Of a DNA stretch of 61,833 nucleotides, positions 118 to 58,401 are shown one piece after another. A program made the position numbers and the translations under genes. Numbering within the stretch: position 1 is the first letter of the stretch; each line of letters begins with the position of its first letter. The stretch is from Catajapyx aquilonaris. Its lineage: Eukaryota. The notes beneath the pieces are model-generated. The model did no database searches. It saw only the letters and a list, made by a program, of their open reading frames with translations, and was not told the origin of the DNA. The DNA lies in the NCBI GenBank assembly GCA_000934665.2, contig KZ538560.1:1-61833 (forward strand), written 5' to 3'.

Positions 118-949
118 GAGGATGTACTGTACGTCTACTTTCCGATGACGACGAAACTCTATACTGACGCCGTATACTCACTTCACACCTTCAGGAACAC
201 GTCAGCACAATTTGGGGCACTTAGGTCATTTATTGAAAACTATAGTGGCCACCTAAAACGCTTTCGGAAAACTACATTAGACCTTATGAATATTTAATTA
301 TTTTCGCCTAGCTCTAGCGAGCGTTGGAGTCCACGTGCACTTAGGAGATAAGCACCTTGTGGGGATCATAATTAATTTATCAAATCGAAGCCCTCACTAT
401 ATAGTGTCTCGATTGATTACGGAACGACCACCATGAAGTGAGACATTAAATATTTTTGTATTCGTGGGGGCGGGCAGCGGAATTTTACAAGAGGACTCTA
501 CATGTTAGTGGTTTACCTTACCGGGGGGNNNNNNNNGGGGGGGGGCATGCTACGAATTGTTGTTGGATGGACATAATTTACAATAAGGTCTACACCTCAG
601 ACAGCAGGCCCAGAAAAAAAGCGAGCGAAGCGAGTTTTTTCTTCGTAAGCAAATAATGCTACAATCTTAATATTCAGCAGGAATTCGTTACATCAGTTAT
701 GTTGCTCTCAAATCAGAGCATTTTTTACGAGAATAAAATACAGCAGACGTTATGAACAGGCGCGTTTACATATTGAAACTCAATCTCATCATGTAATTGT
801 CTGGTTAGATTTGTACTCAAAGATAAGGACCATTATATGCTGGAAAGCGTCACTTCACTCCTTCAGTGTCACTTCACTTCTTCAAGAACACGTCAGCTCA
901 ACTATAGGGGCGTTCCAGAGGCGAAAAAATAAGGCTATTATTATAGGGG

Positions 950-1560: not shown

Positions 1561-3641
1561 ATGCTGTCATCCTGCATATTCATCTTCAGCTTCTGCCTGG
1601 TGGTCCTTGGATCCAACAATCAGGTGAGATTACTTTTATGCAATATCATGATGGAGGTTTGACTTGGAGTGTTCCCCTCCCCCCAGGTACATTCAGGGAA
1701 TGTCACCTTGACCGCTGACCATGACGAGAACGCCTTGATCTCCAACCTGGTCTCTCACATTCTGGACACCCTCTTCCCGGACTGCTTTCTGAGCGTGGAC
1801 ACTGACTCGACGGGACGGTTTGGCTTGGCCGTCCAGGGCGTGTCCCTGCACCAGTCCAGCAGGTACCGGCCGGTGGTCACTGGTCGGATGGATCCCGAGA
1901 CCTTCCGGGTGAATGTGGAGGACCACAGGGTCATCTGGAAGGAGGAGCAGCTCTACTCATTCAGGTCCATGCCCCCTGACCTCTTCTCCCAGACGTGGAA
2001 CGGAGGGAAATGCTCCTTCAACCTCCTCCTCTCCACCTACCCGCAGCATTTCCCGAACCTTGTCTTGCACGCCGTCAGCACCTTCAGATTCAGAAACCAG
2101 CACGATCCAGTCCTGATCCACGCCTCGGGTCAGATCGATCCGGATCGAATCCTCTTGACAGACCCCGCCAGAGGAATCTTCCTCAAGCTCCTCTCCCAAT
2201 ACCATCCAGACAAGAAGGAGCTGGTCCTGCACAACGTCTGCTACTTTTGCTTCAGTCCCGTGCACAGGGTCAATCCACCCATCCCTCAATCACTCCACAA
2301 GTTATTGGCACGAGACCATCTCTTTTCTGTACCGGCTGGTACGAACAGATGGGGCATGAATTACCCATTAGTTCACTATGAAGAGATTGATATGGCAGGT
2401 GCCAGAGATAGGATCAAGGATCCGGATTATAATCCGACAGTGCCTGAACGCGTAATATCCGACATAGAAAAGAGGTGGAATGTGACAATTCAAACTGCGG
2501 TTCCACATTTCACTTTTGACGATTATTATCCTAATGGCAGTTACACCGGATTTGTCGCACCAGTAGTTTACGGTAGGGCTGACGGAGCACTGGTCCAGAT
2601 ATACTCTGAGGTTTCTATCAGGGCTACTGCAGTAGCGATACCCCTTTTCTTTTTCCATGTGTCGTTCCTTCGAAGGCACGCAGGACCAGACATAAAGTGG
2701 TACCTCATTGCCCAACCATACACAGGTACAAGCTGGCTAGTTATGCTTGTCACCGTGTGCATGTCGTCTGCTGTGCTTTATCTGCTAGAGAGAAGCGAAA
2801 TGCAGCACGTTAGGCGCTGGTTGAGTGGTCAAACCAAGACCACCAAGTCTCTCTGGCATAATATGCAAGTAATAATGCGCGAGATGCTAGAGCAAGCAGT
2901 TTCACAGCCGACGTACCCTTCGATACGGGCGTTTTATTCCTATACGTGCTGGTCTTTTCATTGGTGTTAGGCTGTCTGTACAAGGCAAGAATATTCGCTC
3001 TTCTGGCCGTCCCAGAGACACTTCCCAACAGTTTCAGGGAATTGTTCACCTCCAAATTTGCTTTGGGTACAGTCCTTCCGCTTTACGTTCTCATCGGGTG
3101 GGGTGTAAAGAAAACTAACCTGACATTTGTTATCGAATTGTACGAGAAGTTTGAGGTTGTGTCAAATGATCTCAAATGCTTTCAAAAAGCAATGCAGGAG
3201 GACTTTGCTTGCTTTCTCACAGATTACCATTACCGCAGGTCAGTCGTCCACTTCTTGAACCACAAGGGGGATCCTAAAGTTGTATGGGTCACAGAAAAAT
3301 ACCTTTCTTATTACACCGGACCCTCCTTTGCACGTGATGTGGTTGACTTGCCAAAGATTTTGAGACAAACAGTTGTTTTGTTCGAAGGAGGACTGATTAA
3401 TCACAGGGAAGAGACCTATAACTACAGGAACTTCCTGCGATCGTACATGACAGCTCGCAAGTTAGCCTTTGAAGACGGGTCTGTACTACAAGATGGCCGG
3501 GTCTTCACCATGTACAAAGTGTCACCTATACTGTATGTCTGGTTGTTTGGTCTTGTATTGTCCATATTGGTATTCTCAGTCGAATTGGCTGCTAGAAAGG
3601 TGCTGCCAAAAGGCAATATTGTTCGGGTGCAAACAAAGTAA
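1561..3641 (+). pseudogene. Divergent ionotropic receptor (variant iGluR), copy A; one 2-nt frameshift (pseudogene or assembly error)
   Basis: Exon 1 1561-1623 (signal peptide), phase-0 GT-AG intron, exon 2 1687-3641. S1 motif NGSYTGFVAPVVYGRADG, M1 QPYTGTSWLVMLV, pore/M3 EQAVSQPTYPSIRAF...LYKARIFALLAVP, S2, final TM. An extra TA at about 2941-2944 (TCCTATACGTG vs TCCTACGTG in copy B) splits it into ORFs 1669-2970 and 2946-3641. About 670 aa when repaired. Confidence 0.8.
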
Positions 3642-5108: not shown

Positions 5109-7841
5109 ATGCTGTCATCCTTCTTATTCATCGTCAGCTTCTGTCTGGTGGTGCCAATCCAACAATCAGGTGAGATATCTTTTATGGAATATCATGATGG
5201 AAGTTTGACCTGGAGTATTCCCCCCAGGTATATTCAGGGAATGTCACCTTGACCGCTGACCATGACGAGGACACCTTGATCTCCAACCTGGTCTCTCACA
5301 TCCTGGACACCCTCTTCCCGGACTGCTTTCTGAGCGTGGACACTGACTCGACGGGACGGTTTGGCTTTGCGGTCCAGGGCGTGTCCCTGCACCAGTCCAG
5401 CTGGTACCGGCCGGTGGTCACTGGTCGGATGGATCCCGAGACCTTCCGGGTGAATATGGAGGACCACAGGGTCATCTGGAAGGAGGAGCAGCTCTACTCA
5501 TTCAGGTCTATGCCCCCTGACCTCTTCTCCCAGACGTGGAAAGGAGGGAAATGCTCCTTCAACCTCCTCCTCTCCACCTACCCGCAGCATTTCCCGAACC
5601 TTGTCTTGCACGCCGTCAGCACCTTCAGATTCAGAAACCAGCACGATCCAGTCCTGATCCACGCCTCGGGTCAGGTCGATCCGGATCGAATCCTCTTGAC
5701 AGACCCCGCCAGAGGAATCTTCCTCAAGCTCCTCTCGCAATACCATCCAGACAAGAAGGAGCTGGTCCTGCACAACGTCTGCTACTTTTGCTTCAGTCCC
5801 GTGCACAGGGTCAATCCACCCATCCCTCAGTCACTCCACAAGCTATTGGCACGAGACCATCTCTTTTCTATACCGGCTGGTAGGAACAGATGGGGATTGA
5901 ATTTCACAGTCCTTCATTTTGAAGAGATTGATATGGTAGGTGCCAGAGATAGGATCAAGGATCCGGATTATAATCCGACATTGCCTGAACGCGTAATATC
6001 CGACATAGAAAAGAGGTGGAATGTGACAATTCAAATTGCGGTTCCACATTTGAGTTTTGACGATTATTACCCAAATGGCAGTTACACCGGATTTTCCGCA
6101 CCCGTAGCCTACGGTAAAGCTGACGGAGCACTGCTCCAGATATACTCTGATGTTTCTATCAGGGCTAATGCAGTAGCGATGCCCCTTTTCTTTTTCCATG
6201 TGTCGTTCCTTCGAAGGCACGCAAGACCATAAAGTGGTACCTCACTGCCCAACCGTACACAGGTACGAGCTGGCTCGTTATGCTTGTCACCGTGTGCATG
6301 TCGTCTGCTGTGCTTTACCTGCTAGAGAGAAGCGAAATGCACGTTAGGCGCTGGTTGAGTGGTCAAACCAAGACCACCAAGTCTCTCTTGCATAATATGC
6401 GAGTAATAATTCGCGAGATGCTAGAGCAAGCCGTTTCACAGCCGACGTACCCTTCAATACGAGCGTTTTATTCCTACGTGCTGGTCTTTTCATTAGTGTT
6501 AGGCTGTCTGTACAAGGCAAGGATATTCGCTCTTCTGGCCGTTCCAGAGACAGAGATACTTCCAAACCATTGGAGGGACGTGCACGCCTCCAAAGGACCT
6601 GTTCAAGTAGCCCCGCTACCTAAGCGGCAACCATCTTGCGCATCTTGTAGTGTATAATCTATGCACCTAGTTTTCCGCTAAAGGCCGCTGTGTTCGCCAC
6701 TGACTGTATCTTTGATGTGGTAGGGGTTGCTACCTAGCGGCCTTGGTAGGATTCAAAACATGTTGTCACGTGGTGAACTGTTTTATTAATTGATTTAGAG
6801 GCAGGAAAACTCGTGTGGTTTTTACCCCGTAAAAATGTTGTAAGAATATTCGTGTGAGACAAATGCCGCCTCAGGGAACCGATATGCGAAATGCAAGCCC
6901 CATCGAGATATCACGCGTTTGCCCAATCGCGTATCTCTCCATCTCTCCCTCTCCTCTCTCTCACTCTCTCCTAAAAGAGAGAGAGGTGAAAGAGGGGCGG
7001 ACTCGCCGGACTCAAGATGGGGTTCGTTGGCAAATCAAGGCCGAACTCTTTCTCCAAACTGATGAAGGTCACCCGAGGTCACCCTTTAGAAGCATTCTTC
7101 CATTGAATGACATATATTAGAGTGGCTGGACAGCAACATTTTGATCCAACTCCCCTGCGTTGCCAAGTTTCCGGCAATGATCTGCTCCAATCTAATTGAC
7201 ACGAATCATTGAGCCATGTGGGTGGCCTTTCTTTGCCAGGATAACTTTGAATAGGTCCTTTGCTTGGGGTACAGTCTTTCAGCTTCACGTTGTCATTGGG
7301 TATGCTGTACGGAAAATGAACCTGAAATTGGTGATCGAAATGTACGAGAAGTTTGAGGTTCTCTCGAATGATCTCAAATGCTTTGAAAAAGCAATTCAGG
7401 AGGACTTTGCTTGCGTTCTCTCAGATTACCATTACCGCAGGACAGTCGCCCACTTCTTGGACCACAAGGGGGATCCATAAGTTGTGTGGATCCCAGAACA
7501 ATACTTCTCTTATTACACCGGACCCTCCTTTGCACGTGACATGGTTGACTTGCCAAAGTTGATGAGAGAAACAATAGGTTTGTTCGAAGGAGGGCTGATT
7601 AGTCACGGTGAAGAGAAGTACAACTACAGGAACTTCCTGCGTTCGTACATGAGAGCTCGCAAGTTGGCCTTTGAAGACGGATCTGTACTAGAAGATGACC
7701 GGTCTTCACCATGTACAAAGTGTCACCGATCCTGTATGTGTGGTTGTTTGGTATTGCATTGTCCACCTTGGTATTCTCCGTCGAATTTGCTTCTAGAAAT
7801 ATGTTGCTAAAAGGCAATATTGTTAGGGTGCCACCAAAGTA
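5109..7841 (+). pseudogene. Divergent ionotropic receptor, copy B (pseudogene)
   Basis: Tandem paralog of copy A. Exon 1 5109-5169 is 61 nt instead of 63 (frameshift). Also a 4-nt deletion near 6229, a 664-bp insertion at 6595-7258, an in-frame TAA at 7478-7480 and a 1-nt deletion near 7700. Confidence 0.88.
6595..7258. mobile_element. Non-autonomous TIR element, Spy-type (inserted between AAA and TTT, no TSD)
   Basis: Termini GGACCTGTTCAA...TTGAATAGGTCC form an 11/12 inverted match. The empty site in copy A is TCCAAA|TTTGCT; copy B is TCCAAA-element-TTTGCT with no duplication. Confidence 0.8.
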
Positions 7842-8926
7842 AATTGTTTGCTGAAAACTCTCAAGTTCCACGTGTTAATATTTTCCATTGGGGTTAACGT
7901 TGATGCTGTACATAATTAGTGTCTGTAATTTTTCTCCATTTCTATTATCTGAATGCATTGAATACAATATATTTTCCAACCAGCTTTTATACTGATGCAG
8001 ATGGTCCAACTCCACAAAAGTCATCTGTAAACTGTCGCACGAGGAAAATGTAAGAAAATAATATTATACACATCACAATATATTATTAAGATGGTCACGT
8101 TTGTCCATAATATTCAGCAGTCCACTGTCACATCACTCGTGGTATATTCGCCCATCAGGAGTCCGTCTGTAACTGGTCCGGGGAGGGAAACGGGACAAAC
8201 CGACAAACTTTCCCTTCTATACTATATGCAAAGGCTGATATATTAATATCTTTCCATGTCTGAATGTTCGTTTTGCAAAAAAAAAAACAAATGTTGATCC
8301 ATCCTGCTTGTTGCAACGGTCAAAAAGGATCGTAATTTTTAAGCAAGGCCCAGCACAAGGAAATAAGTCCAACTTTTCTATTTTTATTGGCCCATAGCAA
8401 ACGTCAGAAAACCAATGTGGCGAAAGATCCGTCTTGTATATTTACTCCAGTAAGTCTTATTGTAAAACTAAAATAATAATGCATATAAGTATCCAGTCAT
8501 CATCGGGCATGTCATATTATTAAAATATTGTAATAAATTAATTGCACAGCGTATCATTTTTATCTTTAATCGAATCTGAAGCAAGATTATCACACCTTTG
8601 CTGATCTTTAGCTTTCAATGCATAGGCAACTTGACATTTCTCGTATACATGCCGTTTATACGTTTACCTGACCGTTACTTATATAGGTTTACATAATACT
8701 GTGACGTAAGCAGCATGTAAGAATTTGCATTGCAATGGAAGAGCATACTAATATAAGTCCCTTTTTCGCTTCATATCGTCTGACTCAATGAGTCTTTAGA
8801 CTAGTGCAACTTGGGACTTCACACTGGTAAGAATATGGGTTTTTGAGGTGGTAATTTTTTTATATCATTTAATCTATAACGTTACTGTGGGCCTCAGAAT
8901 TGAGCTCACATCCATATCGGTTCAAA

Positions 8927-9047
8927 TGTTAATATGTTTAAATATTGTCAAAGTTTGCAGAATGCGGTATTGATATTAAAGCCCGCTGATTCTAATATCA
9001 AATAAACTGCATTCTGCAAACTTTGTCAATTTTTAAACATATTAACA
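8927..9047. repeat. Fold-back hairpin (about 50-bp arms) in the probable 5'UTR intron of the FPPS-like gene
   Basis: TGTTAATATGTTTAAATATTGTCAAAGTTTGCAGAATGC pairs with GCATTCTGCAAACTTTGTCAATTTTTAAACATATTAACA. It lies between a GTAAGA donor (8827) and the TTCCAG acceptor (9305) just before the ATG. Confidence 0.75.
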
Positions 9048-9312
9048 CCTGGAGTACTTCGATCGTAACAGGTGTTGGAAAAATTCAGATTAATATTTTA
9101 TACCTACTTCACTTACCTCCTGACCACCGTTGAATTTTGCAAAATTTAAGGGTTTGCAGTATCTTTTCTCCTGCCCTTCAGTTGCAATATATTCTATAGA
9201 TTAACTTGTCTCATTCACACTATTATTACGCACCATTCTCGTATAGCTAAAAAAAAGGCATCACACAATTAAGCATCATCCGCAAGCCATTGTACTTCAT
9301 TCCAGGTTCAAA

Positions 9313-11081
9313 ATGGCAGAAAAAGTAGTGCAAGAGGAAATAGCCAAGTTGTTCGCGTAAGTTTATGAGAAACTATTGATGTGACAAAAATGTGTGAAAA
9401 TTTTAGCACATTTTTTTTATATATACAGAAGCAGCGACGTGGTGAAAAATCCAATGATGAACGAACGCATTAAGTTTTTGGAGGTGTTTCCCGAAGTGGT
9501 TAGGGATCTGACGGAAGTAGTTGACGATCCGGAAGTCAAAGATGCGACCGAAAGGTTCCAACAAGTGCTGCTGTACAATGTAGTGGGAGGAAAGCTAACT
9601 AGAGCACTTACGTTCATAAAGGCTTGCAGGAATCTGACTGAAGGCGGTTTAAATGCAACCGACGTGAAGCTGATGTACATCATGGCATGGTGCATTGAAC
9701 TAGTAAGCATTTTTTTAAATGTATGGTTAATTTCTGATATAGCCTTTAAAAAGTAGAAGGATTCGTCTCATAATCAGTATTTGATGCAAAAAAATGTGAA
9801 CCTAATTTTACTGGCTTCCATTTTTTAAACTTTTTAAAATCTTCTTGCATGAAGCTCCAGGCGTGTATTTTGGTGGCTGACGACATAATGGACAAATCTG
9901 AGACACGTAGAGGACGATTGTGTTGGTACAAACACAGCCACGTGGGACTTATGGCTGTTAACGACTCATTGATGCTGCAGTCTGCTGTCTTTTCACTATT
10001 GAAGAAGCACCACAAGAGGCAGCCATACTACGTCGACTGCTTCGAAGTATTTAACAATGCAAGTTCTGCTCTAATTTTGTGTTAATTTCTAAGAGATTAG
10101 GAGGCAAACGTTTGAAGAGCAAGTGCCAAAAAATTAATAATGTCCCTAATTGTTGCAATATTTTCGGCTTGTCTTTTACAGACACATTTCATGACGAATT
10201 TGGGCCAAACAATTGATAGCCTGACCCTGAGCACAGTTAAGGATCCTCAGCTTCATATGTTCAATGAGACTAGGTACGAACTGATGTGTAAGTACAAAAC
10301 CATGTACTATTCTTACATCCTGCCGTTGTCATTGGCCATGCACGTGGTTGGAATGAGCGACGAGAAGCTTCATCGTCGAATGGAAGAGGTGCTAACAAAG
10401 GCCGGAGTTAAATTCCAGGCAGAGAATGACTTCCTGGATGTGTACGGTGATCCGAATGTCACTGGAAAGGTTGGAACTGACATAGAAGAAGGGAAATGCA
10501 CTTGGCTTGTAGTCACAGCTCTGAAGATTGCCAATGAGAAGCAAATCCAAGTGCTCCAGGTCAGTTTCATATACTTCTTACGTGTACATGACTCATGTTA
10601 TTTCAGCAATTTTTGGATAATCAGTTACGTTTGCGCAGTTCTTATGAAACACTTATGCAATTATCATTATATCAGTGATTAATGTTTGTGTTGAAATTCA
10701 CATCATGTTGACATATTAGGAAATAGTTACGCAAATCCATTTGTCTAACTTATTGCACATGCTTTGATAAGTTGACATGCACTGCATTGCATTGCCTGAT
10801 CTAATTTACTAATAATAATTATGGCCTTTTTCTTATAGGAATGTTATGGAAGCTATGATCCGGCGCATGTGGAGAAAGTGAAGAGTCTGTACAATGAGTT
10901 GAATCTTCCACGATTGTATCTCAAATATGAAGAGGATTTGCATTCTTCTTTGCTTGCAGATATCGACACCTTGCCTTCTAAGAAACTTCAGGCTTTGTGC
11001 AAAAGTGTTGTTGATGATGTGTACATTAGAAATACTGATTACACTAAGAAAGTTATTTTCAAGCACTGCAATTATATTTAG
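9313..11081 (+). CDS. FPPS: Farnesyl diphosphate synthase-like trans-prenyltransferase (divergent; possible IDS-type terpene synthase), about 380 aa
   Basis: Exons 9313-9356, 9429-9702, 9855-10058, 10182-10559, 10839-11081, frame-consistent; intron 3 is GC-AG. Motifs GGKLTR, DDIMD..TRRG, GQxxD, KT, FQAENDFLD, GKVGTDIEEGKCTW. Confidence 0.92.
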
Positions 11082-11633
11082 TAGAATAATTATTACGGGC
11101 TGGGTCAAAAAAGTGCAAAATATTTTAGTCGTAAATGATTTTATCGTTTAGCAAATCAGAGCAATTTATATGCAGCACATTTTATGTTCCATATTTTTCT
11201 CCTATAGGATTTGACTGATTCATATCTTCAGTCATGTAATAGTAAAGGTGTCGTTATTAAACTGCCTTGCTAAATTCCATTTTGTAACTCATTTCACAAT
11301 CACGAAATATGCTCAAATGCTTTTCGCTTTTTTTCATTGAAGTTCTTAATATGGTTACGAGACTGGCAGTAACATTACGTGACAGCTCATTGTCTTGTAA
11401 TGCTTTGCAGATGAGCGCAACAGCAGCACCTATAATAGGGGGGGAAAATACGTCAGAATCTGATGGCATAATTATTATGATTATATTGTAGAACCGACAA
11501 CTAATCTGTCATATTTGTTGTCTGTTCTACAATAATCATATGTCTTCTCTCTTTATTATATCATATACATACCAGAGGTGAATGGACCATTCATGGTAAC
11601 CTACAACAGGTGAAAAACTTCCATTGATCTTTA

Positions 11634-13338
11634 TCACCTGCAAGTTCTTCCTTGAAAGGCCTTGTAGAATAACACAAAAGCTTCTCGATATGCAGATATT
11701 CTGAAAACACATAATTATATAGGCTGTAGAGGTATGATTCGATCCCAAATCGGATGTACAAACCGGATGATGTAAAAGATGAAATTGCTGGGAAAATAAA
11801 TAGTCGTGATGAACGTGACGTAGACGTAAGGCTGCTTCCACGGTCCGCCTTTGGTGAAATAAAGAAACACGTTGGGAGTGAAAGTGAGCAAGTAAGTTGA
11901 GGATAAAATGACTAGCAAAGTAGCTATTTTCTTTTCTCTTTCCTTCAGTTTATGCAGTGTCACAGGGCTCATCGATCTGCAAATTAAGATTTTAATAAAC
12001 TATATATTACCCTCACTTACAGGAGATTTAAAATAAAGAACTTACTTGTATCTCCGTATGCGGCTCCAGTTAATCCTGAGTTTTATCGCGATTAAAAGTA
12101 GGCATATTAGTAATATTACTGAAGGCACAAGAGCTAAAACTCCGGCCAGAACATTCAATTCCGGATGATTGTAAAGCTGAGCCATGCATTTTCCAGCTGA
12201 TCGGCTGAATCCGAATACATTTTCCACCTTTAAGAAAAATGATTGGTACGCAATCATACTCATGTTCAGCATTGATTATGTAACCAGGGAGCATATGTAC
12301 ATAAGAGGCGAAAACATTCGATTTCCGCGTCTCTCTGGGGCGTTGCCAAGGCTAGCGGCCAAGTGGGGGCAACGCCAACGAGGTATAAATAGGGTACATG
12401 CAAAATAGGGTCCGCCATCTTTGATTCGCGCGTGTTCTTGCCGTGTAGTTGCCAAGGCCCCCAAAACCATCAAAGATGGCGGACCATATTTTTGCCTGTA
12501 CCCTATTTATACCTCGTTGGCGTTGCCCCCACTTCAAAATGGCCGCCAGCCTTGGCAACGGCTCCAAACAGAGAGACGCGGAAATCAATGGCGCTGACCG
12601 AAGTTTGCGCATCTTATGTAGTATATGCTCCCTGATGTAACAATGTGTACTCACAAAAATCATTCCTGGCGTAATTGCAGGATATAACCACATGAGAATG
12701 AGCGACAAAAATCCATGATTTTTAAAAATGAATTTGCATATCTGTGGGCACCATAATGCCATTGCTCTGAAACATTAATATTACATTACAAAGTATATAG
12801 GCAAGTCAAAGTGCAAGGTAATATTAAATAAAACACTTACCTGTACAGTGTTGTCACAGACAGTATGAAGCGTGATGAGTATCCGATGAAATACGTGACA
12901 AATCCAAAATATCTGCAGAATCTAGGCCCAAAAGACCAACCTCCATTGATGACATTGATGACATCGATTGGTTGTATTATTGCGCAGAACACGAAATCAG
13001 AGAAGCTAAGATGCAGCAACAATATTGTCACAAAATTCCGGAGCGGACTGTGGGGAACATTGTCAAATAGTGTGATGTAATAAACAATAATATTAATTGC
13101 GTTAGTACCTTAAAGGATCATTGCATTTCTGTCGTGCGTATGGCAGTGCAATGAGTGTGATCATGTTTCCAATGCCGCCAACCACTATAGTAATTATGCA
13201 GTAAGCGATGTAAACAGAGATAAATGAAGGGGGCCAATCAGGAAAGCAGCAACTAGGAGCACCTGAATTCATGCAAACTTCTGAAGTTTCCAGGTCACTT
13301 CCATTGCAGAAAGTAGAGTTCACGTTGTATGAAGTCAT
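11634..13338 (-). CDS. Class A GPCR, Tre1/Moody (GPR84)-like, about 336 aa
   Basis: Exons 13338-13109, 13047-12841, 12766-12655, 12227-12046, 11976-11764, 11700-11634, frame-consistent GT-AG. TM1 GNMITLIALPYAR, TM2 LHLSFSD, ECL1 WSFGPRFC, TLYRA (DRY variant), TM6 TFTP, SNFIFY (NPxxY variant), helix 8 YREAF. Confidence 0.82.
12285..12634. mobile_element. Palindromic MITE (350 bp) with 7-bp TSD, in GPCR intron 3
   Basis: TIR CAGGGAGCATAT...ATATGCTCCCTG, flanked on both sides by ATGTAAC, with long internal inverted arms. Second copy at 18061. Confidence 0.88.
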
Positions 13339-17375: not shown

Positions 17376-20300
17376 CTACTCCTCTTTTTGTGTGTTGTTG
17401 TTGATCTGAAGCACGTCCAGATGCTCCTTGGGCATGTCCTTGTCTCCCCAACCCCAGATGGGATGACTTCCATCCCCTGACCTCATGGCCCTCCGTCTGA
17501 TCATGTCAGAACCAACAGTCTTTAGGTCGTAGGCCCAACCCAGCATGGCGAAAAAGTCTATAAATCCGGTGGTCAAATTCCATCTGTAAAAGGGCAGCTC
17601 TGATGTCTTGTAATCCCAAGGGAAAGAATGGTGATAGTTGTGCCAGCCTTCTCCGTAAGCGAAGAAGGAAACTACTATGTTTTCAGCTGGCCGGATTGAC
17701 CTGAAGTCAAAAAGTTCACATAATTATGTAAGTGACAATATATTTAAGTTTTGGCTGTAAAATAGTCGGAATGACAAAACATACTTGTCGTATGGCCTGT
17801 ATCCCCACATGTGAGCAGCGCTGTTGACCAACCACGTGCTGTGCAGAGTGTATACGTAACGAAGGAAGAACCCAACGAACACTGATGCCTTCCAGGTCTC
17901 TCCAAGTCCATAATGAACCACAAGGATAGGGAGTATTATGCTGCACACCAAAATTACTTTCAGGTAATGCCTGGAATAAAACAACACAATATTAATATTG
18001 CTTGGAAATAACCCAAGTCAAAACCTGGCAACACTGCTCCCTCAACTCTGAACGTAGTACCAGGGAGCATATACTAGAGAGGCGCAAGCATTCGATTTCC
18101 GCGTCTCTCTGCTTGGGGCGTTGCCCAGGCTGGCGGCCATTTTGAAGTGGGGGCAACGCCAACGAGGTATAAATAGGGTACAGGCAAAAATAGGGTCCGC
18201 CATCTTTGATTCGCGCGTGTTCGTGCCATGTAGTTGCCATGGCCGCCAAAACCATCAAAGATGGCGGACCCTATTTTTGCCTGTACCCTATTTATACCTC
18301 GTTGGCGTTGCCCCCACTTCAAAATGGCAGCCAGCCTTGGCAATGGCCCCAAACAGAGAGACGCAGAAATCAATGGCTCTGACCGAAGTTTGCGCCTAAC
18401 CCTGGCATATATGGCGCCTACTGCCACTCTCAGGGTCGTTACGTGGACAATCTCAGACAAACCAAATATATCTTTCGCAGTCATCTTTTTACATACCCTG
18501 TCGGCATAAATTCCACGCATGCGTCGACATCACACTAATCGAGGCGTGATTGGCCACCTCAGAATGATGAGGTAATGATAAATTTTGGCTTATTGTTTTC
18601 TATTACTTAGCAACGTAAGGTCAGTTTTCCCAAATAGAGGCGTGATTGGCCATCTCAGATGAGGTGATGATAAACTTATTGTTGGCAATTACCACGCAAT
18701 AACATATATAAGGTCAGTTTTTCCTCAACCGGGCGTGATTGGCCACATCAGATGAGATAATTGTGTACAGTATGTTAGGTGGAAAGGTTTCTCCAGAATT
18801 TGTGAGGTAAAGAGACCTGTGTTGAAACATGACGATTGGATCCTCCTTTAGGTCCGTGAGGTCCACAATTTTTCCTTTCTCCTTGACATCCGGATGCTTC
18901 TTGCACATGAGCCATCCCATGTGAGCGAAGAAGAATCCTCTCCTGGAATTGTGAGGATCTCCGTCCGTCTCCGTGAACTTGTGGTGCACCCTGTGGTCTC
19001 GGCACCATTCCAGTATCGAGTTCTGAAACATCATGTAACAAAAATAAGAAACATATCATGTGTGTACCTTGGTATGAGTAAAATGCTAATCAGATAGTAA
19101 GATTGGAGTGTTAAGGCCAAGTTACGGTGGCAGTGATTCAGCCCCTAATTATTATTTAACAATTTGCGTCAATGGCATGCTCCATCATACCATTCCATAA
19201 CATGTTACACCTACCATGCATGTGTTTTCCCCCATCTGAAGGTCACCTCAAGTCCAGACAACCTTGGGGAAAAATTGCGCTACTTTTTCCAAAATAATTA
19301 ACCTATCTTCTTCATCATAATTATACCTGGAATTATTACCTGGAATGCAACAGAGTCTAAGAAGATGAGAAGGAGCCTTAGAGGTGTCTTGGCCTTGTAT
19401 GACCTATGACACCAATAGCGATGGGCACCTGCTGTTACACCGTATCCGCTTGCTCCAGCGATTATGTAGGCTGAAATTGAATCGTGAAGAGAAAATTAGT
19501 ACTTCAATTAATTATATATAGGATGGGATTTTCCTGACTATTTTGTCTGGAAAATACCAAGCACAACTATATGGACATCCTGGACAGTAATTAATATGTT
19601 CCCTTACGATTTAGACAACCTCATTTTCTATTCCGGATCCGTGTCAATGTAAACAAGAAGCTTAACCGCACACGAAACATGTACAAACTGACCTATGTTT
19701 AAAAAACAATAGTGTGAAAAGAGTGAAAGAAAGTGTCGTTATTTTCTCTGCCGTTGCAACAATTTCGTGAAAATTACATCCGCTCACGCACTTTACTTAA
19801 AAAATGTTATTATCGAATGAAAGTTTGACCGCATCTTGATTTTATTAATGCGCTTCCAATGTTGTATGTTAATTAACATATTGACACATTCAAATTGTGT
19901 CTGATTGTTACCCAATTGAGATCATTTATGTCCACTCTCGTTACCTTATCACATGAAAGCGGATGTAGCCTATTATCAAATTATCAACTGAAAACGCAAT
20001 TGTGACACCTCATTTCTGAGATAATTAGGTAAGCTGCCACGATATAATAAAAACCTGTTTTAATCTCATTAGCAGCAAACTAAAACTGCGCAGGTAAAAA
20101 TGACACAATCTGCATAGGAAAATCCCATTTGTGTTCATAAATAAATTGTGTGGGAATCATATATGACAAAGCATCTTATATAAAAAAAACAATACCTATC
20201 GTATAGTAGACAAAAGAATTTGAACGCATTTTCTCTTGCGGGAGTTTAATGCTGTCAAATAATAATGCGACATTCACATAATATGTGGCCTACTTTACAT

Positions 20301-36599: not shown

Positions 36600-37480
36600 C
36601 GACAGCTAGCCAACAAAAAAAATGACAATAACTAACCAACCAGTAATAACGACAACCAACAAGTAACAACGACAATTATTAACGAACAAGTAACAATGAC
36701 AATTAGCCAACAAGTAACTGACAATTATTAACGAACAAGTAACAATGACAATTAGCCAACAAGTAACTGACAATTATTAACGAACAAGTAACAATGACAA
36801 TTAGCCAACAAGTAACTGACAATTATTAACGAACAAGTAACAATGACAATTAGCCAACAAGTAACGATGACAATCAACCAACACGTAACAATGACAATTA
36901 ATGAACAAGTAACAATGACAATTAGCCAACAAGTAACGATGACAATTAGCCAACACGTAACAATGACAATTAGCCAACAAGCAATGATGACAATCAACCA
37001 ACGAGTAACAATGACAATAATTAACCGAAATTTAATTCGGGAACAAACAAGAAATGACGACAATTGATAACGAACGGGGAAACGGCGACAGTTAAACTAA
37101 TAATAACAATGAATTAGCCGACAAGTATCGACTGCAATGAATTAACCGACAATGAATTAGTCGACGAATAATAACGGCAATGAATTGGCCGTGAAATCTT
37201 AAGTGACAACGAGTTGGCCGACAAAATCGTAATGACAATGAATTAACAGAAATGGCAACAGTTAACCAACAAGTAAATTAAAAGACAGTTAACCAACAAG
37301 TAATAATGACAGTTAACGAAGAAGAAGTGATGATATTTTAACCAACAAGTAATGAAGAGGCAAAATTATTAACGAAGTAGTAGTTAACCGACAAGTAAGG
37401 CGACAATTAGCCATCAAGTAAAAGCTAAAAAAAAATTATTAACAATGATGACCAGCAATCTACGAGTAGTGACAACAATT
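36600..37480. repeat. Minisatellite (about 21-24-bp unit AACAAGTAACAATGACAATTAGCC), degenerating rightwards
   Basis: Direct tandem copies are visible; they generate the spurious repetitive ORFs at 36752-37067. Confidence 0.9.
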
Positions 37481-43246: not shown

Positions 43247-46200
43247 ATGGCGGCGTCTAAGAAGAAAAAGAATTTCGAACACTTCGATTCTAAAGGTTTG
43301 TTCTAAGAAATGAGGTTGTTCGACATGTTGTAACCAGTTCTAATAGTTGAGTCATGTCATAATTAATCTGGAAAAGCATTAATTGCATGTTGCAAGTGTA
43401 ATAGTTGATGAGATAATTTGCTTTGATAATAGTCAGGCCTTGTTCATGTCTGATTTTTTATTTTTATTTTAATATTAATTTTTTTATAAGTACAGTTAGG
43501 CCCCTGTTTTTTAAATGATATATATTTTTTAAAACAATTTGTGGTGCATTGTGCACGGTTACATTATTATTCAGAACAATAAGTACAGTAATGTTTTCAG
43601 GTAAATGTTTTCTTTTACAGCCAAGGCTGCGTGTGAAATGAAAGCGACGCCGTGAATTGTTAAAAAGTGCGCATCGTTCTGAATATTTCAATTACATGCA
43701 TTGCCGCAATGAGCCCTAAGCGAAGTACGTCGGTTCCGGGGAGATCCAAAAAAGAGCGTAAGACGGTAACGATCGAGAAGAAAATGGAGGTGATTCGCCG
43801 TATGGAATCGGGCGGACGTCGTTCTGACGTATGCAAAGAGCTGAATTTAGCTCCGTCCACGGTATCCACGATTATGAGCAATGTCCACAAAATAAAACGG
43901 ACGTACCAAGGAATAACGGTGCAGTCATCCAACGTAACTTACTCCCGAAGCGAATCCATGGAACGAATGGAGAACATGTTGGTCGTCTGGGTTGAGCATA
44001 TGAACCAAATTAACATGCCGATCACCCAAGCGTTAATTCAAGACAAGGCGAAATCGCTGTTTGACGAAATACGCGAGGAGACTGGAAGCACCGAAACATT
44101 TACGGCCAGCAAAGGTTGGTTCCATCGGTTTAAAAACCGGACTGAAATACATCGGGGGAAACAAGTTCCGCAGGAATGTCCATCCCATTTTAAGATGTTA
44201 ATCGGCAAACGCAATTACCATCCGGACTTAGTTTTTAACGTGGACGAAACCGGGCTGTACTGGAAAAAGCTGCCGAGCGCCTGCGAGGAAAGTTTAGCCG
44301 CAAATGATCGTCTGACGTTACTTCTCGGCGGAAACGCTTCGGGGACAATGAAGCTGAAACCGATGCTGGTGTACCACACGGAGACGCCTTCCATAATGAC
44401 AGGAATGGTTAAGACGCGACTTCCCGTTCTCTGGCGATCCAGCAAAAATGCGAACGTAACTCAAACCATATTTAGCGAGTGGTACACCTCGTATTTTTGT
44501 CCAGAGGTTGCGAAGTTTTGTGCCGATAATGGATTGCCTCCGAATGTAATGCTGGTGCTGGATGATTCTCCGGGACATCCGGACAACTTACATGAAATCC
44601 ACAGTGGCAATTTGGATGTTGAGATCGTGTGTTTGCCCGATACGCAACGACAACCTATGGACCTGGGTGTGATTGCGATGTTTAAAGCGTACTACTTGCG
44701 AGAGACATTCAAGGCGATTGTCGAGGCAGTGCAGTCCGATATGACCGTACAGGAGTACTGGAGGTCGTATGATATACTGAAAGCGATTACCAACATTGAT
44801 TCGGCTTGGACGGACATATCGCAGGCTTGTATGAATAGCGTTTGGAGTCAACTGTGGCCTGAAGCTGCCGACTCGGTTTCAGAGACGGTTGCGGATGTGG
44901 TTGAGGATGTCTGTCAGATGGCTAAGGTCGTTGCGATCGACATCGATCCGCCCGATGTTGAACAGCTGCTGGAGAGCCATAGTGAGCCGCTAGTGAAGGA
45001 AGAACCGTCCGCACAACATGAGGACACACCTGACGTTCAAATACGGACATTACAAACCGAGCATATCAAAAGTGCGCTTGCTAAAATCCGTAGCGCTTTC
45101 GACGAACTGTGCGACAACGATCCTGATTGGGAACGGAGCCATGGCGTCCGACGAGGCGTAAACACGATGCTGAAGCCGTACTACAACATCTTGGAGGAGC
45201 GAAGTCGAAAGTCACTCTTGCAGTACGTAACTGTACGAGAACCTGACGACTCCCAACCTGGAACCTCCCATTAAAAATGTGTGTATGTTTCAATTACAAT
45301 TTCGATAACTTACAACTTATCATTTTACAAACGGGGGCCTACCTGTACATTTTATGCGATAAATAAGCCGTATTTGTTTATTAATATTTGTGCACTAATT
45401 TCAGATGAGCGGATATGGGCTGCGGTTGGATTCGCAGTGGTGCTGCTTGGAGTCGGTCTTCCGCTTTGGTGGAAGACGACTGAGGTGGAGCGAGTCCCGC
45501 TTCCGAGTGAACGGATGGAAGATGCGGCCAGACAAATAGTCCGGTTTCCAGTCCGAGTCGAGATAGTCGCGAAGGACCTGAGCGGAAAGGAGATAGAAGC
45601 GGACAGAGCGGCCATCCAGGAGTTTGGCGACGGCTTGTTCCAGTTGCGGCTCAAGTTGCGAAATCCGAGCGAGAAGGAAGTGAAGACCATTAAAGCAGCT
45701 GTTGATTTGGAACAACTGGAGGAATCTGATGTTGCGGATGGAGTTTCGGAAGGTTCATTCCGGTTCGTGCAGGTCGAGCGGAAATTGGTGGCGGACAAGT
45801 TGATAATCGGACGACGCAGGACGGCCTATTTTGCTGGCGACACAGGTTGGTTTGTTGCGTAAATATCGGACAGCTACTTATGAACGTACATTTCAGATAT
45901 CGCCATGTTGCTGTCGACTCTACGTAAGGAGATACTTCGCGAGTCGTCCTTCCCGTACGCACGCAACCTGTCCCTTCCATGCTCGCTCTCGGCTGACACC
46001 AAATCCAAGCTGTTCCAAGTTCCGCCCGCCGCATCGTACGACCTCCTATTCACCCTGGCCGTACCCGACCCTGCGTCTGCCCCGGTTCTATGGGACCTAC
46101 CGCAAACTCTAACTCGATATGTCTCGCCACTTTTAGCGACGCTGGAACCTTGGGCCCATTTCCGTGCTCGATCGCAAGTGTTGTATCTGACTACGTTGGG

Positions 46201-46987
46201 AGGAGAATCGCATTGGAGGGACGATCTGGGCGCACACGTTTTGCCATGGGAGCAGCTGCCTTTACTAGCGACTCCGCTTGAGGCTCGGCTTGCTTCACAT
46301 GTTCATGCGCATCCGCGGTTGAACTTTGTGGTGTGCGTCGCGCCTTGTGAGCGTTCGCCGATGGTCATACTAGACAAGAACGGGAAGCCGGTGGAGACAA
46401 ACGCTTTTGTGCTGCCGCAATGGGGCGGAGTTCAGGTCATCAACATCGGCTGCGGTGACAACTCAACTATGACTGTCGACACCACAATGGCCGTTATGCT
46501 CCAACATTTGCGACTCCTCCTTGGATTGGACTCCACGCCGGGCATGTTGGAGTTGAGCAAGTCGGCCATTCGGGACTGGGAGCGTGACTACCTGTTGCGA
46601 TTACGGGCCGCTCAGAACCTGTGCTCGGTTGGGATCAGTCTGAAGTCATTAGCTCAGCTGCTGGGCGAGATCAGCGGGATCGTTATTAACGAGGAAGTCG
46701 GCAGCCGTGTTCATCGCGCTTTAGACCAGTCTGATCTGGCACGGCAAAATTTAGCTGCGGCTCGACTTAGCGAGGGGCAGGAAGCGTCGAGGGAAGCGTT
46801 TGTGGCTGCCGAAGGTGCTTTCCATGATCCGTCATTGCTGGCATTGCTGTACTTTCCGGAAGATCAAAAGTACGCAATATACATTCCGCTCTTTTTGCCG
46901 GTTGGAATACCCGTGGCATTGTCGCTTCAGAGCATCTTGACGTGGATCAGTCGGAAGTGGAGAGGCGTTAAGGCCAAGACGGACTAG
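43247..46987 (+). CDS. PIGS: GPI transamidase component PIG-S, about 526 aa
   Basis: Exons 43247-43295, 45405-45845, 45897-46987, frame-consistent. N-terminal TM GLPLWWKTTE, NAFVLPQWGGV, C-terminal FHDPSLLALLYFPEDQKYAIYIPLFLP. Confidence 0.95.
43493..45345 (+). mobile_element. Full-length pogo/Tigger DNA transposon in PIG-S intron 1
   Basis: TA on both flanks (43491-43492, 45346-45347). 28-bp TIRs CAGTTAGGCCCCTGTTTTTTAAATGATA and the reverse complement of 45318-45345 match at 24/28. Confidence 0.88.
43709..45274 (+). CDS. Tigger/CENP-B-family transposase (intact single-exon ORF, 521 aa)
   Basis: MSPKR start, CENP-B N-terminal HTH, second HTH (FTASKGWFHRFKNR), DDE_1 domain with FNVDETGLYWK, LVLDDSPGH and QPMDLGVI (DD32D spacing). 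Confidence 0.92.
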   Translation: MSPKRSTSVPGRSKKERKTVTIEKKMEVIRRMESGGRRSDVCKELNLAPSTVSTIMSNVHKIKRTYQGITVQSSNVTYSRSESMERMENMLVVWVEHMNQINMPITQALIQDKAKSLFDEIREETGSTETFTASKGWFHRFKNRTEIHRGKQVPQECPSHFKMLIGKRNYHPDLVFNVDETGLYWKKLPSACEESLAANDRLTLLLGGNASGTMKLKPMLVYHTETPSIMTGMVKTRLPVLWRSSKNANVTQTIFSEWYTSYFCPEVAKFCADNGLPPNVMLVLDDSPGHPDNLHEIHSGNLDVEIVCLPDTQRQPMDLGVIAMFKAYYLRETFKAIVEAVQSDMTVQEYWRSYDILKAITNIDSAWTDISQACMNSVWSQLWPEAADSVSETVADVVEDVCQMAKVVAIDIDPPDVEQLLESHSEPLVKEEPSAQHEDTPDVQIRTLQTEHIKSALAKIRSAFDELCDNDPDWERSHGVRRGVNTMLKPYYNILEERSRKSLLQYVTVREPDDSQPGTSH

Positions 46988-49064: not shown

Positions 49065-49700
49065 ACACAAATAAAAATAAATTTTGAAATTCATGAATTA
49101 ACTATACAAATAAAAATAAATTTTGAAATTCATGAATTAACTATACAAATAAATTTTGAAATTCATGAATAAGTTATACAAATAAATTTTGAAATTCATG
49201 AATTAACTATACAAATAAATTTTGAAATTCATGAATAAGTTATACAAATAAATTTTGAAATTCATGAATTAACTATACAAATAAATTTTGAAATTCATGA
49301 ATAAGTTATACAAATAAATTTTGAAATTCATGAATTAACTATACAAATAAATTTCGAAATTCATGAATTAACTATACTAATAAATTTTGAAATTCATGAA
49401 TTTACTACACAAATAAATTTTGAAATTCATGAATTTACTATACATATAATTTTTGAAATTCATGAATTAACTATACAAATAAATTTTGAAATTCATGAAT
49501 TTACTATACAAATAATTTTTGAAATTCATGAATTAACTATACAAATAAATTTTGAAATTCATGAATTTACTGTACAAATAATTTTTGAAATTCATGAATT
49601 AACTACACAAATAAATTTCGAAATTCATGAATTAACTATACAAATAAATTTTGAAATTCATGAATTAACTATTACAAATAAATTTTGAAATTCATGAATA
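49065..49700. repeat. 33-bp AT-rich minisatellite, about 19 copies
   Basis: Unit AAATAAATTTTGAAATTCATGAATTAACTATAC, containing the palindrome AATTCATGAATT. Confidence 0.95.
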
Positions 49701-50055: not shown

Positions 50056-50263
50056 NNNNNNNNNNNNNNNNNNNNNNNNNNNNNNNNNNNNNNNNNNNNN
50101 NNNNNNNNNNNNNNNNNNNNNNNNNNNNNNNNNNNNNNNNNNNNNNNNNNNNNNNNNNNNNNNNNNNNNNNNNNNNNNNNNNNNNNNNNNNNNNNNNNNN
50201 NNNNNNNNNNNNNNNNNNNNNNNNNNNNNNNNNNNNNNNNNNNNNNNNNNNNNNNNNNNNNNN
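50056..50263. other. Assembly gap flanked by poly-C and poly-T
   Basis: N run. Smaller Ns at 529-536 and 25711 also sit in or beside poly-G. Confidence 0.99.
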
Positions 50264-55817: not shown

Positions 55818-58401
55818 TCACGACTTCGACTTGACTTCCATTAATGAGTGGTCTCGAATGGGCTTGAATTTGAGCAATTTTGAGTATGAAATCATGAGCT
55901 CCTTCCAGTAGCACTCGACATCTTCCATCCGCAAGTGTGACCGGATGAACTTGGATCCTCGATCCGCTATCGCTTGGGCAATGTTGTCATGTTCCTTAGC
56001 GAATTCAATCAGTTCTCTGTAAATGGACAGAATATGTTTTTTGTATACTATTGTTACGACTTGTCTTGTTGCAAACTGTTGTACTGCACAGCACCATACT
56101 TTACCTAACCTCTACTAAGCTAACCTCTGCTAACTGAACCACTACTAAGCTAACCTCTGCTAACTTCCACTAACCTCTGCTAACTTAAACACTACTAAGC
56201 TAACCTCTGCTAACTTAACCACTACTAAGCTAACTTCCACTAACCTCTGCTAACTTAAACACTACTAAGCTAACTTTACCACTACTAACTTCCACGCTAC
56301 TAAGCTAACCTCTGCTAACTTCCACTAACCTCTGCTAACTTAACCACTACTAACTTAAACACTACTAAGCTAACCTAAGCTAACTTTCACTATGCTCTGT
56401 TAACTTAACCACTGCTAACTTCCACTAACCTCAGCTAACTTCCACTAACCTCTGCTAACTTAACCACTACTAACTTAAACACTACTAAGCTAACCTCTGC
56501 TAACTTAACCACTACTAAGCTAACTTCCACTAACCTCTGCTAACTTAAACACTACTAAGCTAACCTTCACTATGCTCTGTTAACTTAACCACTACTAACT
56601 TAAACACTACTAAGCTAACCTCTGCTAACTTAACCACTACTAACTTCAAACTTAACCGCTACTAACTTCCACACTACTAAGCAAACCTCCACCAACTTAA
56701 CCACTACTAAGGTAACCTAACTTGTATGTACCTGATCTGATCCTTCGAAGCGTCACCTGGAACCGGAATGTAGTGTACCCAAGGCTTAAGCGCCGGGTAG
56801 AAGAACTCGCTCCATTCGCTACCGACATGGAAAACTAGCGAGCCGCAGAGGAACAAGTGCTTGAGCCTGAAGCTGGCTGCCACGCCTCGGTAGTTGAACA
56901 AGTACTTGAACTTGCAGTGGTCCTCGAACTTCACCTCCGTAGCAGGCGGTGCATTCAGAGTGTCAGCGTCCGATTTCCACGCCTGATTCTTGGTGTACTG
57001 TGCATCTACCATGTCGGGCATCTCTCTGCAAATAATTACCGTTATTAATCCCATTAGTCTGCTAGTTATTAACAGACTGACCTGGACAAAAGCACGATTG
57101 GATCTCGTTCCGGGCTGGTCCGCGACCCTCTGAAGAAAGCTCGTTGCAGCTTCTTGTCCCACGGCCACTTCCCAGCTGCCTTTGGGATAGCCTCGAGATG
57201 CTGGTCCCACCTCCCGAGGCCTCGAGGGTACAGGGTGATTGCTGGCCCCCCCTCCCAGAAGGACCAAGCTGGATAGGTGATGTCGTAGTAGTCTGGCGTC
57301 TTGCTAAAAGACAACACCGGAGCCGGGTTGGACCACTGGCGCTGTATCTGCGGCCAGTCACGCGTGTTCAGGACAAACTCCATGTCCGGGAGGTCGGGCA
57401 GGAGAGGCAGCAGGAAATGCTCCACTCCGGTGCATCGGAAAGGAAACATCACTTCCTTGCTGCGGTACAGGCGGTGGTTTATCACTTGGTATCTGGTCCC
57501 CCTGTCAAATATACAGCACTTATTGTGGGTTTGTCTTCTGCCCAACAATACTGTCAGTCTTGTCCTGCCCCAGACCAACGAACATTATTGTGGCTTTGCC
57601 AAGCAGTAGCTCTTCATTTATTTTCCTTAGTTGTGTCACAGGCCAACGAATGTTATTGTGGCTTTGCCAATCAGCATGTTTTTATTTATTTTCTTTAGTT
57701 ATGTGACAGGGGCCAAATAATGTTATTGTGGCTTTGCCATGCAATGTGTCTTTATTATTTTATTGTTTTTAATTGTGTCGTAGCCAAAGAACGTTATTGT
57801 GGCTTTGCCAGTGTCGCTCGGAGGCTTCGCAACTTACTTGTCCGCCACCTGCTGAATCATCTCTTGAGTAATCCCGCTGTCGAACGGCCGCAAGTCCTGT
57901 CGTATGAGCTGGGTGTAGCAACTGCAATCGCTTCCATTGAACGCCACGTACTCCGCCATTGCAGCTTCGACCAACGGCATGAACTTCCCATCCCGTCTGC
58001 TTGAATCTAATCGGATCGAACGATAATTATTAACAAAACGTATGGCCAAAGGACACAAGGCTACTTATGATCTACTTATACAAAACAGCAAAGTTTCTTT
58101 GTTTGTCCCAATTTGTGCATGGCAACGGGTTAACATGGAGTAGGTCATACTCATAAATTATTAAAACATCATTAAAGTATAGTAATGAGAAAATTTAAAA
58201 GGGTGGATGCGACATGCCTCCAGTGTACTTCCCAGCGCCGTCCTCCTCCGCACCCGAACATGTGTCCTCCTTCCTGTCGACGCCGCACTGTCCGCCTTCC
58301 CCTGCGCCATGAGCCATGATCCCGAACAGAGCCAGAAGCACCAGAGGCGCCAGAGAAGTCCAGAGGAACCAGAAATTCCAACATCTTCTGGACGCCGCCA
58401 T
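55818..58401 (-). CDS. POGLUT1: Protein O-glucosyltransferase 1 (rumi, CAP10/GT90), about 421 aa
   Basis: Exons 58401-58218 (signal peptide; probable GC donor), 58006-57838, 57501-57082, 57025-56732, 56016-55818. Motifs [60 protein letters not shown]. Confidence 0.95.
56100..56720. repeat. Compound CTAAC/TAACC-rich minisatellite in the last rumi intron
   Basis: Shuffled modules ACTACTAAGCTAACCTCTGCTAACTTAACC and TAACTTCCAC. Confidence 0.9.
57575..57812. repeat. Four degenerate direct repeats (about 65-70 bp) in rumi intron 2
   Basis: Core TTATTGTGGCTTTGCCA repeated four times. Confidence 0.85.

Follow-up and report, generated by a model that had tools for sequence, protein, structure and literature searches.

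What does a gene for farnesyl diphosphate synthase (FPPS) encode once residues of its metal site, its product pocket and its C-terminus have departed from the family pattern? The question is posed by an FPPS-like gene on contig KZ538560.1 of Catajapyx aquilonaris, whose 61,833 nucleotides, analysed as a whole, are called the window here. A sequence-only reading of the locus had proposed that the gene may encode a terpene synthase (TPS), or a prenyltransferase of altered chain length, rather than the housekeeping enzyme. Based on comparisons of conserved residues, evolutionary rates and spliced contigs from another study, we regard its product as most likely a fast-evolving member of the type I (eukaryotic FPPS) trans-prenyltransferases that is no longer a standard housekeeping FPPS. 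We tentatively favour a more specific model, in which the protein would be a prenyltransferase that uses isopentenyl diphosphate (IPP), its metal-B site remodelled, its product pocket deepened and its lid altered, and probably a specialised paralogue whose product length, metal preference or regulation has changed.

The gene is real, spliced and transcribed. Its five exons hold 1143 coding nucleotides, which translate into 380 amino acids with a single terminal stop, and its splice sites are standard except for the GC donor of intron 3. Five public sequencing runs match the stretch, four of them possibly the source of the assembly and the fifth, X5, from another study (46% of the sampled words). 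The kind of library is not on record for X5, which is RNA-like by its spliced contigs alone, and it is on this spliced form that transcription rests. Aligned to 8900-11500, the two X5 contigs contain exonic sequence only (9514-9702, 9855-10058, 10312-10557 and 10837-11423), with no base difference, and skip 9703-9854 and 10560-10838, both bounded by GT..AG; three of the four introns are confirmed, including the GC-AG one. The X1 DNA contig has no joints. As the codons for C-I, E-N-D-F-L-D and the whole C-terminus are backed by the independent RNA-like X5 contigs, the unusual residues are not an assembly error, and the earlier view of the gene as otherwise intact holds.

An active site changed at near-invariant positions

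Family membership is seen in exons 3 and 4, which match PF00348 in Pfam with E values of 6.8e-17 and 5.1e-27, respectively; exon 2 gives a weak match below the cut-off (E 0.0015) and exon 5 no Pfam match of note. In a search of solved structures, exon 4 matched 53 distinct sequences and exon 3 matched 51, all of the FPPS or related short-chain isoprenyl diphosphate synthase (IDS) type, the best being the Phaedon IDS1 entry 8A7B for exon 4 (E 1.3e-33) and avian FPPS 1FPS for exon 3 (E 2.8e-21). With the canonical eukaryotic type I enzymes (avian 1FPS, human 1ZW5) the protein is collinear, without large insertions, and it has in common with them the PF00348 signature, the DDIMD, RRG, KT and GKxGTD motifs, the lysine of the GKxGTD loop included, and 15 of 17 IPP contacts. 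Unlike them, it carries D257N, Q256E, F112C and F113I, lacks a basic C-terminus and ends in a 14-residue extension.

How rare are these changes? A canonical set of 117 FPPS of 330-480 amino acids was taken from the 119 matches (P0280-P0398) of 120 listed by a profile search; its named members come from sponges, cnidarians, molluscs, insects, a centipede and vertebrates. A wider set, enriched in divergent offshoots, comprises the 91 sequences of 300-480 amino acids among the first 159 proteins returned, mostly by scanning 1.84 billion cluster representatives exhaustively. The second Asp-rich motif reads FQAENDFLD, with NDFLD exactly where the sequence-only reading had placed it (Table 1). Its first position is Asp in 117/117 canonical FPPS, Asn occurring there in none of them and in 7 of the 91 wider-set sequences, and the residue preceding it is Gln in all 117 and Glu in 0/208 homologues (0/117 and 0/91). 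FQAENDFLD fails the published second-motif expression at three positions (A, E and N), an expression passed by 113/117 canonical FPPS; the first motif, DDIMD, fits the published DD[ILMV][EFMQ]D. Immediately 5' of LVADDIMD, the Cys-Ile pair makes positions -5 and -4 non-aromatic; in canonical FPPS, aromatic side chains there restrict products to C15. Position -5 is aromatic in 113 canonical sequences and the C-I pair is found in none of the 117, which bears out the earlier remark that an aromatic pair had been replaced.

The C-terminus is equally unusual. In the DVYIRNT tail, I-R-N-T replaces the basic end (K364I, R366N, K367T), 14 further residues follow, and no terminal carboxylate stands at the usual place. 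After the column of human K364, exactly 3 residues remain in 116/117 canonical FPPS and 17 in the FPPS-like protein; among the other 163 sequences compared (the 117 canonical ones and 46 picked from the 91) the longest tail has 11. The degenerate, extended tail noted earlier is thus longer than any in the comparison.

The beetle Phaedon cochleariae offers a structural guide to both regions in its IDS1, a metal-switched synthase of geranyl diphosphate (GPP) as well as farnesyl diphosphate (FPP) (PDB 8A6U series). In the parts of Ecker et al. 2023 drawn on here (PMC10396970), motif-2 position 1 is a ligand of metal B, and stabilisation by zoledronate is lost only in the D319A variant. Entry 8A7B carries Asp-to-Asn at this position in an otherwise FQIQ-DFLD motif; given this Asn and the restriction of the loss to D319A, metal and ligand could plausibly still bind with Asn there. 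The same source describes a C-terminus that closes over IPP and places its terminal carboxylate between R427 and the IBM-1 Lys, K133 (PMC10396970). Wild-type PcIDS1 has Asp at motif-2 position 1 and a short C-terminus, whereas the FPPS-like protein has Asn and 14 extra residues. With this extension, and with K364, R366 and K367 lost, closure of the lid must change.

The protein as a whole is also far from its relatives. Over the most conserved exon the best identity was 48% in a word-indexed search (9 scored matches among 193 candidates), and an exhaustive search reached 51%. Metagenome contigs gave 31 loci, none of them close, with a best value of 46-49% over the exon and higher values only on short conserved pieces. 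At full length the best of the 91 homologues is P0011, at 44.6% identity. P0011 is itself an ordinary, myriapod-like FPPS that shares 68% of its residues with the Strigamia enzyme and 53-60% with FPPS from other phyla, and canonical animal FPPS match it at 53-68%. Across 83 near-invariant columns (at least 95% conserved in the 117 canonical sequences) the FPPS-like protein differs at 17 and keeps 66; the canonical sequences differ at a median of 1, with a 95th percentile of 3 and a maximum of 11 (Nematostella 3, a red-algal FPPS 10).

Is this merely a fast lineage? PIG-S, a gene linked to the FPPS-like gene in the window, served as the single control, and the comparison assumes that the FPPS-like protein is nearer to arthropod FPPS than to the outgroups. 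Measured to five non-arthropod outgroups, the distance is 0.92 for the FPPS-like protein as against 0.67-0.71 for five arthropod FPPS (roach, mayfly, sawfly, cricket and centipede). With the same five outgroups the linked PIG-S lies at 0.93, inside the 0.82-0.95 of five other arthropods. Tajima relative-rate tests give 62-82 unique changes in the FPPS-like protein versus 24-40 in the reference, about 2.1-fold, with p<0.01 in 25/25 tests; for PIG-S the figures are 29-51 versus 25-48, with p<0.01 in 0/25 and p<0.05 in 5/25. Since the FPPS tests are accelerated and the linked PIG-S tests are not, the roughly twofold acceleration is specific to the FPPS-like gene. By these measures its divergence is not ordinary drift.

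The gene might nonetheless be the sole FPPS of the animal, still supplying (E,E)-FPP to ubiquinone, dolichol and sesquiterpenoid hormone synthesis and to prenylation, with its odd residues tolerated through compensation such as the Q-to-E change; we hold this to be unlikely. It has no FPPS-type companion in the window, its first motif is intact and its IPP contacts are kept at 15/17, the replacement of Q-D by E-N preserves the local net charge, and one survey, in the part of it cited here, treats FPPS as single-copy across twelve arthropods (PMC9409210). Moreover, a host lineage without a close relative in the databases searched may have oddities of its own, and a placement among arthropod FPPS is not rejected (p 0.657 in the approximately unbiased (AU) test). 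Against these points stand the motif-2 Asp, the preceding Gln and the three-residue basic end, which vary little or not at all among the 117 canonical FPPS (sponges to vertebrates), the gene-specific acceleration relative to PIG-S, and the fact that the other Asn-bearing homologues are divergent offshoots in 7/7 cases, none of them canonical.

The same changes could be taken as signs of a subunit with little or no catalytic activity, perhaps one that pairs with an active FPPS to regulate it, or of a decaying gene. A substituted residue that binds metal B directly (PMC10396970, in the part cited), a lost C-terminal lid, 17 of 83 near-invariant columns changed and a twofold rate would all fit such a protein. 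Yet the frame runs intact through five exons, the splice sites are good and spliced transcripts exist, the 66 near-invariant columns that are kept include nearly all catalytic and substrate-binding residues, and the Asn variant of Phaedon IDS1 still responds to ligand where the Ala variant does not (PMC10396970). We therefore judge inactivity or decay improbable.

Prenyltransferase or terpene synthase

One yardstick for telling insect IDS from TPS enzymes is the set of residues in contact with IPP. For solved FPPS structures these are listed by Rebholz et al. 2023 (Table 1 of PMC10108439), and the parts of that article used here give conservation at the contact positions as 98% in insect IDS versus 10% in characterised insect TPSs, four or more IBM motifs being hit on average in the latter. 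K71/R74 and R127, or Q110, are no longer found in beetle and bug TPSs, R127Y being among the changes listed for beetle enzymes; Empoasca and Lepidoptera TPSs retain most contacts (PMC10108439). The FPPS-like protein keeps 15 of the 17 contacts (88%), namely G70, K71, R74, E107, Q110, L114, R126, R127, T215, Y218, S219, F253, Q254, K271 and R365. The two changed are D257N and K367T, the Thr of the latter also being no longer terminal. Positions 72 and 73 were left out of this score; the first is free in the published expression, and the second is Thr here and Asn in 112/117 canonical sequences. When whole expressions were applied, motif 1, IBM-3 and IBM-5 passed and motif 2, IBM-1, IBM-2, IBM-4 and IBM-6 failed. 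Because IBM-2 and IBM-6 also fail in many canonical controls (41/117 and 47/117), weight falls only on motif 2, IBM-1 and IBM-4, and the failing positions of IBM-1 and IBM-4 are not contact residues. The GGKxxR loop shows no insertion and no aromatic gain. By the yardstick of PMC10108439, then, the FPPS-like protein looks like an IDS and not like a beetle or bug TPS. Of the two halves of the original proposal, an altered active site is upheld by the changed invariant residues and the twofold rate, and the TPS half is weaker than the altered-prenyltransferase half because the contacts that insect TPSs lost are kept at 15/17.

What, then, speaks for a TPS? An IDS-derived TPS, or a bifunctional IDS/TPS, would ionise GPP, FPP or geranylgeranyl diphosphate (GGPP) and release or cyclise the cation without IPP, and its origin would be independent of that of the insect enzymes; we consider this somewhat unlikely. 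That insect TPSs arose from FPPS or IDS duplicates, as the sequence-only reading stated, is correct on the passages cited (PMC10108439, PMC6140472). According to the parts of Lancaster et al. 2018 used here (PMC6140472), replacement of the -4/-5 aromatics is a common feature of insect IDS-type TPSs, the TPSs of Ips and Phyllotreta have motif-2 substitutions, and the harlequin-bug FPPS gained GGPP synthase activity in place of FPPS activity when Phe-Phe became Met-Ser. MhTPS, the sesquipiperitol synthase of Murgantia histrionica, is derived from FPPS and needs its non-aromatic -4/-5 residues, the state seen in C-I of the FPPS-like protein; restoring the aromatics abolished its activity (PMC6140472). 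In MhTPS, however, motif 2 is unchanged and the KKxR IPP motif has become SDAW, whereas the FPPS-like protein shows the opposite, a changed motif 2 and a kept K..R.

The beetle clade supplies the closest parallels. Asn is found in four of its five divergent sequences, and P0149, P0151, P0064 and P0095 (Phyllotreta striolata TPS type) have in common with the FPPS-like protein both Asn at motif-2 position 1 and a non-aromatic -5 residue. From traits listed in PMC10108439 we take these four as putative TPSs, and the homologues, not the papers, are also our source for what published beetle TPSs carry at motif 2. In P0149 both C-I and NDFLD are the same as here, R127 has become Tyr (R127Y) and the GGKxxR loop is destroyed; K71/R74 and R127, all kept in the FPPS-like protein, are lost in both P0149 and P0151. 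Loss of the basic lid and of the usual terminal carboxylate would also suit an enzyme that works without IPP. In microbial and plant class I terpene synthases the second motif is the NSE/DTE motif, (N/D)D(L/I/V)x(S/T)xxxE. The N-D-x-x-D-x-x-x-D pattern is nearer to its N-D-x-x-S/T-x-x-x-E form: the N, the D and the hydrophobic position of NDFLDVYGD fit, but Asp stands where S/T and E are required, and the protein, a homologue of FPPS, does not belong to that class. We know of no terpene chemistry in the host group, and counted this against a TPS.

Phylogeny bears on the same choice. In free quick trees the FPPS-like protein falls among long-branch sequences outside the canonical animal FPPS clade, within an 11-row group with support of 95 (starred) and 91. 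As the nearest protein-atlas clusters of one member, P0028, are plant and fungal, the group is likely a gathering of long branches rather than a natural one, and probably an artefact. A tree that forces the FPPS-like protein together with arthropod sequences lies 8.2 log-likelihood units above the free quick tree (p-AU 0.657), so that its placement is compatible with an arthropod FPPS origin. On a quick-tree branch with starred support of 99, by contrast, the beetle clade, holding beetle FPPS and most other Asn-bearing proteins, excludes it.

The exclusion implies that Asn arose independently in the FPPS-like protein. The state changes at least 6 times on the quick tree, and four of the seven Asn homologues fall in the beetle clade. 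A non-aromatic -5 residue accompanies Asn in 7/7 of these homologues, versus 24/156 without Asn (Fisher p 5e-6); allowing for relatedness leaves four independent pairs and no significant association (median p 0.25), which takes some weight from the TPS reading. A link between Asn and a non-aromatic -5 residue across FPPS offshoots is no more than suggestive. Beside these counts, P0095, P0158 and P0047 combine Asn and a small -5 residue with intact K71/R74 and R126/R127, like the FPPS-like protein; they come from two or more distinct regions of the tree and hint that FPPS offshoots of this uncharacterised class recur.

Based on the contacts that are kept and the residues that are changed, how would the IPP-using prenyltransferase that we favour work? 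Three divalent metals, held by both motif-1 Asp residues together with the Asn of motif-2 position 1, would ionise the allylic diphosphate, and IPP, bound by K70, R73, Q108 and R125, would attack the resulting cation. Cys-Ile, standing where Phe-Phe is usual, would lower the pocket floor, so that the chain may pass C15 or a farnesyl tail may fold into the cavity. The laboratory-made avian F112A/F113S mutants (PDB 1UBV-1UBY), which are among the top exon 3 matches, have smaller residues at the same two positions. These F112/F113 mutants reportedly make longer products, in the work of Tarshis et al. 1996. Cys-Ile is bulkier than Ala-Ser, and the effect on chain length is uncertain. With I-R-N-T and 14 residues in place of the K-R-x-K-COOH lid, closure over IPP would change, and with it perhaps the ratio of condensation to quenching. 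Such an enzyme would probably serve a specialised isoprenoid route beside a canonical FPPS elsewhere in the genome.

Several points weigh against this model. No second FPPS-type gene lies within the 61.8-kb window. Asp is invariant at motif-2 position 1 across the canonical set, and Asn could cripple condensation. The comparison of rates has one gene, PIG-S, as its control. Moreover, the proportion of contacts changed, 12% (2/17), is not clearly below the 20% (17/83) at conserved columns overall, and this similarity means that specific purifying selection on the IPP site is not demonstrated. Finally, as Empoasca and Lepidoptera TPSs keep most of their contacts, retention is compatible with TPS activity.

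The gene and its surroundings

The exons, their motifs and the other features of the window are collected in Table 1.

Table 1. Features of the FPPS-like gene and of the rest of the window (X5, RNA-like contigs)
Feature	Position	Strand	Remarks
FPPS-like gene	9313-11081	+	
Exon 1	9313-9356	+	start codon at 9313; 14 codons and 2 bases; predicted only, without RNA-contig cover
Intron 1	from 9357	+	donor gtaagt at 9357, exon 2 acceptor ...atacag; predicted only
Exon 2	9429-9702	+	N-terminal helices; in-frame Met as alternative start; donor gtaagc; junction 9702>9855 in spliced X5 contig
GGKLTR loop (exon 2)	9586-9603	+	K70 and R73 are the IPP-diphosphate contacts K71 and R74
Exon 3	9855-10058	+	includes RRG; covered by X5, 0 differences
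C110-I111 (exon 3)	9864-9869	+	positions -5/-4
DDIMD (exon 3)	9879-9893	+	first Asp-rich motif
Intron 3	10059-10181	+	GC-AG, donor gcaagt; X5 contig runs from 10058 into 13 letters identical to 10182 onward
Exon 4	10182-10559	+	GQTID, KYKT, GKVGTD, KCTW; X5 covers 10312-10557, 0 differences
FQAENDFLD (exon 4)	10413-10439	+	NDFLD 10425-10439; E255 10422-10424; N256 10425-10427
Exon 5	10839-11081	+	C-terminal helices; stop 11079-11081; junction 10559>10839 in X5 contig
DVYIRNT tail (exon 5)	11016-11036	+	
14-residue extension (exon 5)	11037-11078	+	
3' untranslated region	11082-11423	+	reach of RNA-like X5 contig, 0 differences
PIG-S (PIGS) gene	45884-46987		linked control gene
Fatty-acid desaturase exons	17376-19055	-	PF00487, histidine-box peptides
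Pogo/Tigger-type transposase	43664-45274		intact 536-aa frame; CENP-B_N, HTH_Tnp_Tc5, DDE_1
Long open reading frame, first copy	1663-3641		no Pfam family
Long open reading frame, second copy	5198-6657		no Pfam family
Short peptide repeat	12352-12774		open frame
Short peptide repeat	18058-18529		open frames on both strands
Tandem array	36607-37025		24/49-bp unit
Tandem array	49071-49699		33-bp unit, 18.8 copies, 90% matches
Nested tandem array	56106-56710		15-125-bp
Tandem array	60280-60495		44-bp unit, 4.9 copies, 97% matches
Assembly gap (N run)	529-536		
Assembly gap (N run)	25711		
Assembly gap (N run)	50056-50263		largest; poly-G/poly-T-like flanks

The linked PIG-S gene provides a view of the host from a second protein. 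Its best named match is the copepod Tigriopus, at 46%, with insects, molluscs and echinoderms at 40-45%, and in a quick tree it groups weakly (84), on a long branch, with copepods and a springtail. On this evidence the host appears to be a pancrustacean, not necessarily an insect, without close relatives in the databases searched. The transposase frame adjoins the first PIG-S coding block upstream.

A biosynthetic cluster around the FPPS-like gene was considered and rejected, its neighbours being an F-box protein, a metallophosphoesterase (sphingomyelinase-like), PIG-S, exportin-T, a GT90 glycosyltransferase and a transposase. The desaturase exons lie 6 kb downstream of the gene, with no evidence of a functional link. 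The two long open reading frames form a tandem pair with 91% identity over 337 residues; the second seems to be interrupted after about 344 residues and to resume in another frame. The C-terminal part of the pair looks hydrophobic and membrane-like, and a guess that they are receptors was not confirmed. The two short peptide repeats encode the same peptide of about 50 residues and are probably copies of a short interspersed repeat. A search of the window with Rfam gave no match.

Possible implications for terpene synthesis beyond insects

What are the implications of such a gene? Insects gained terpene pheromones and defences of their own making through IDS-derived TPSs and product-shifted prenyltransferases. 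The characterised cases that we found in print are all from insects: beetles, bugs, butterflies, a sandfly and termites. A literature search combining terpene synthase, crustacean and isoprenyl diphosphate synthase returned no such crustacean enzyme among the matches listed. We find it doubtful that an FPPS copy has become a TPS or a bifunctional IDS/TPS independently in a pancrustacean outside the insects, with the same small -5 residue and Asp-to-Asn change as in beetles, and by way of a disabled C-terminal lid rather than of the basic IPP loop. If this were true, IDS-derived terpene synthesis in animals would reach beyond insects, and the gene would point to unknown terpene signals in the host group.

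The value of the locus extends to the other readings. It offers a clean candidate in a sparsely sampled lineage of arthropods, with an E-N motif state seen in 0/208 homologues. As a natural experiment, it asks whether Asn can replace the metal-B aspartate, what the C-terminal lid contributes, and whether a small -5 residue plus Asn is a repeatable first step away from FPPS. Finally, if the gene were the sole FPPS of the animal, residues regarded as invariant in this family would be dispensable.

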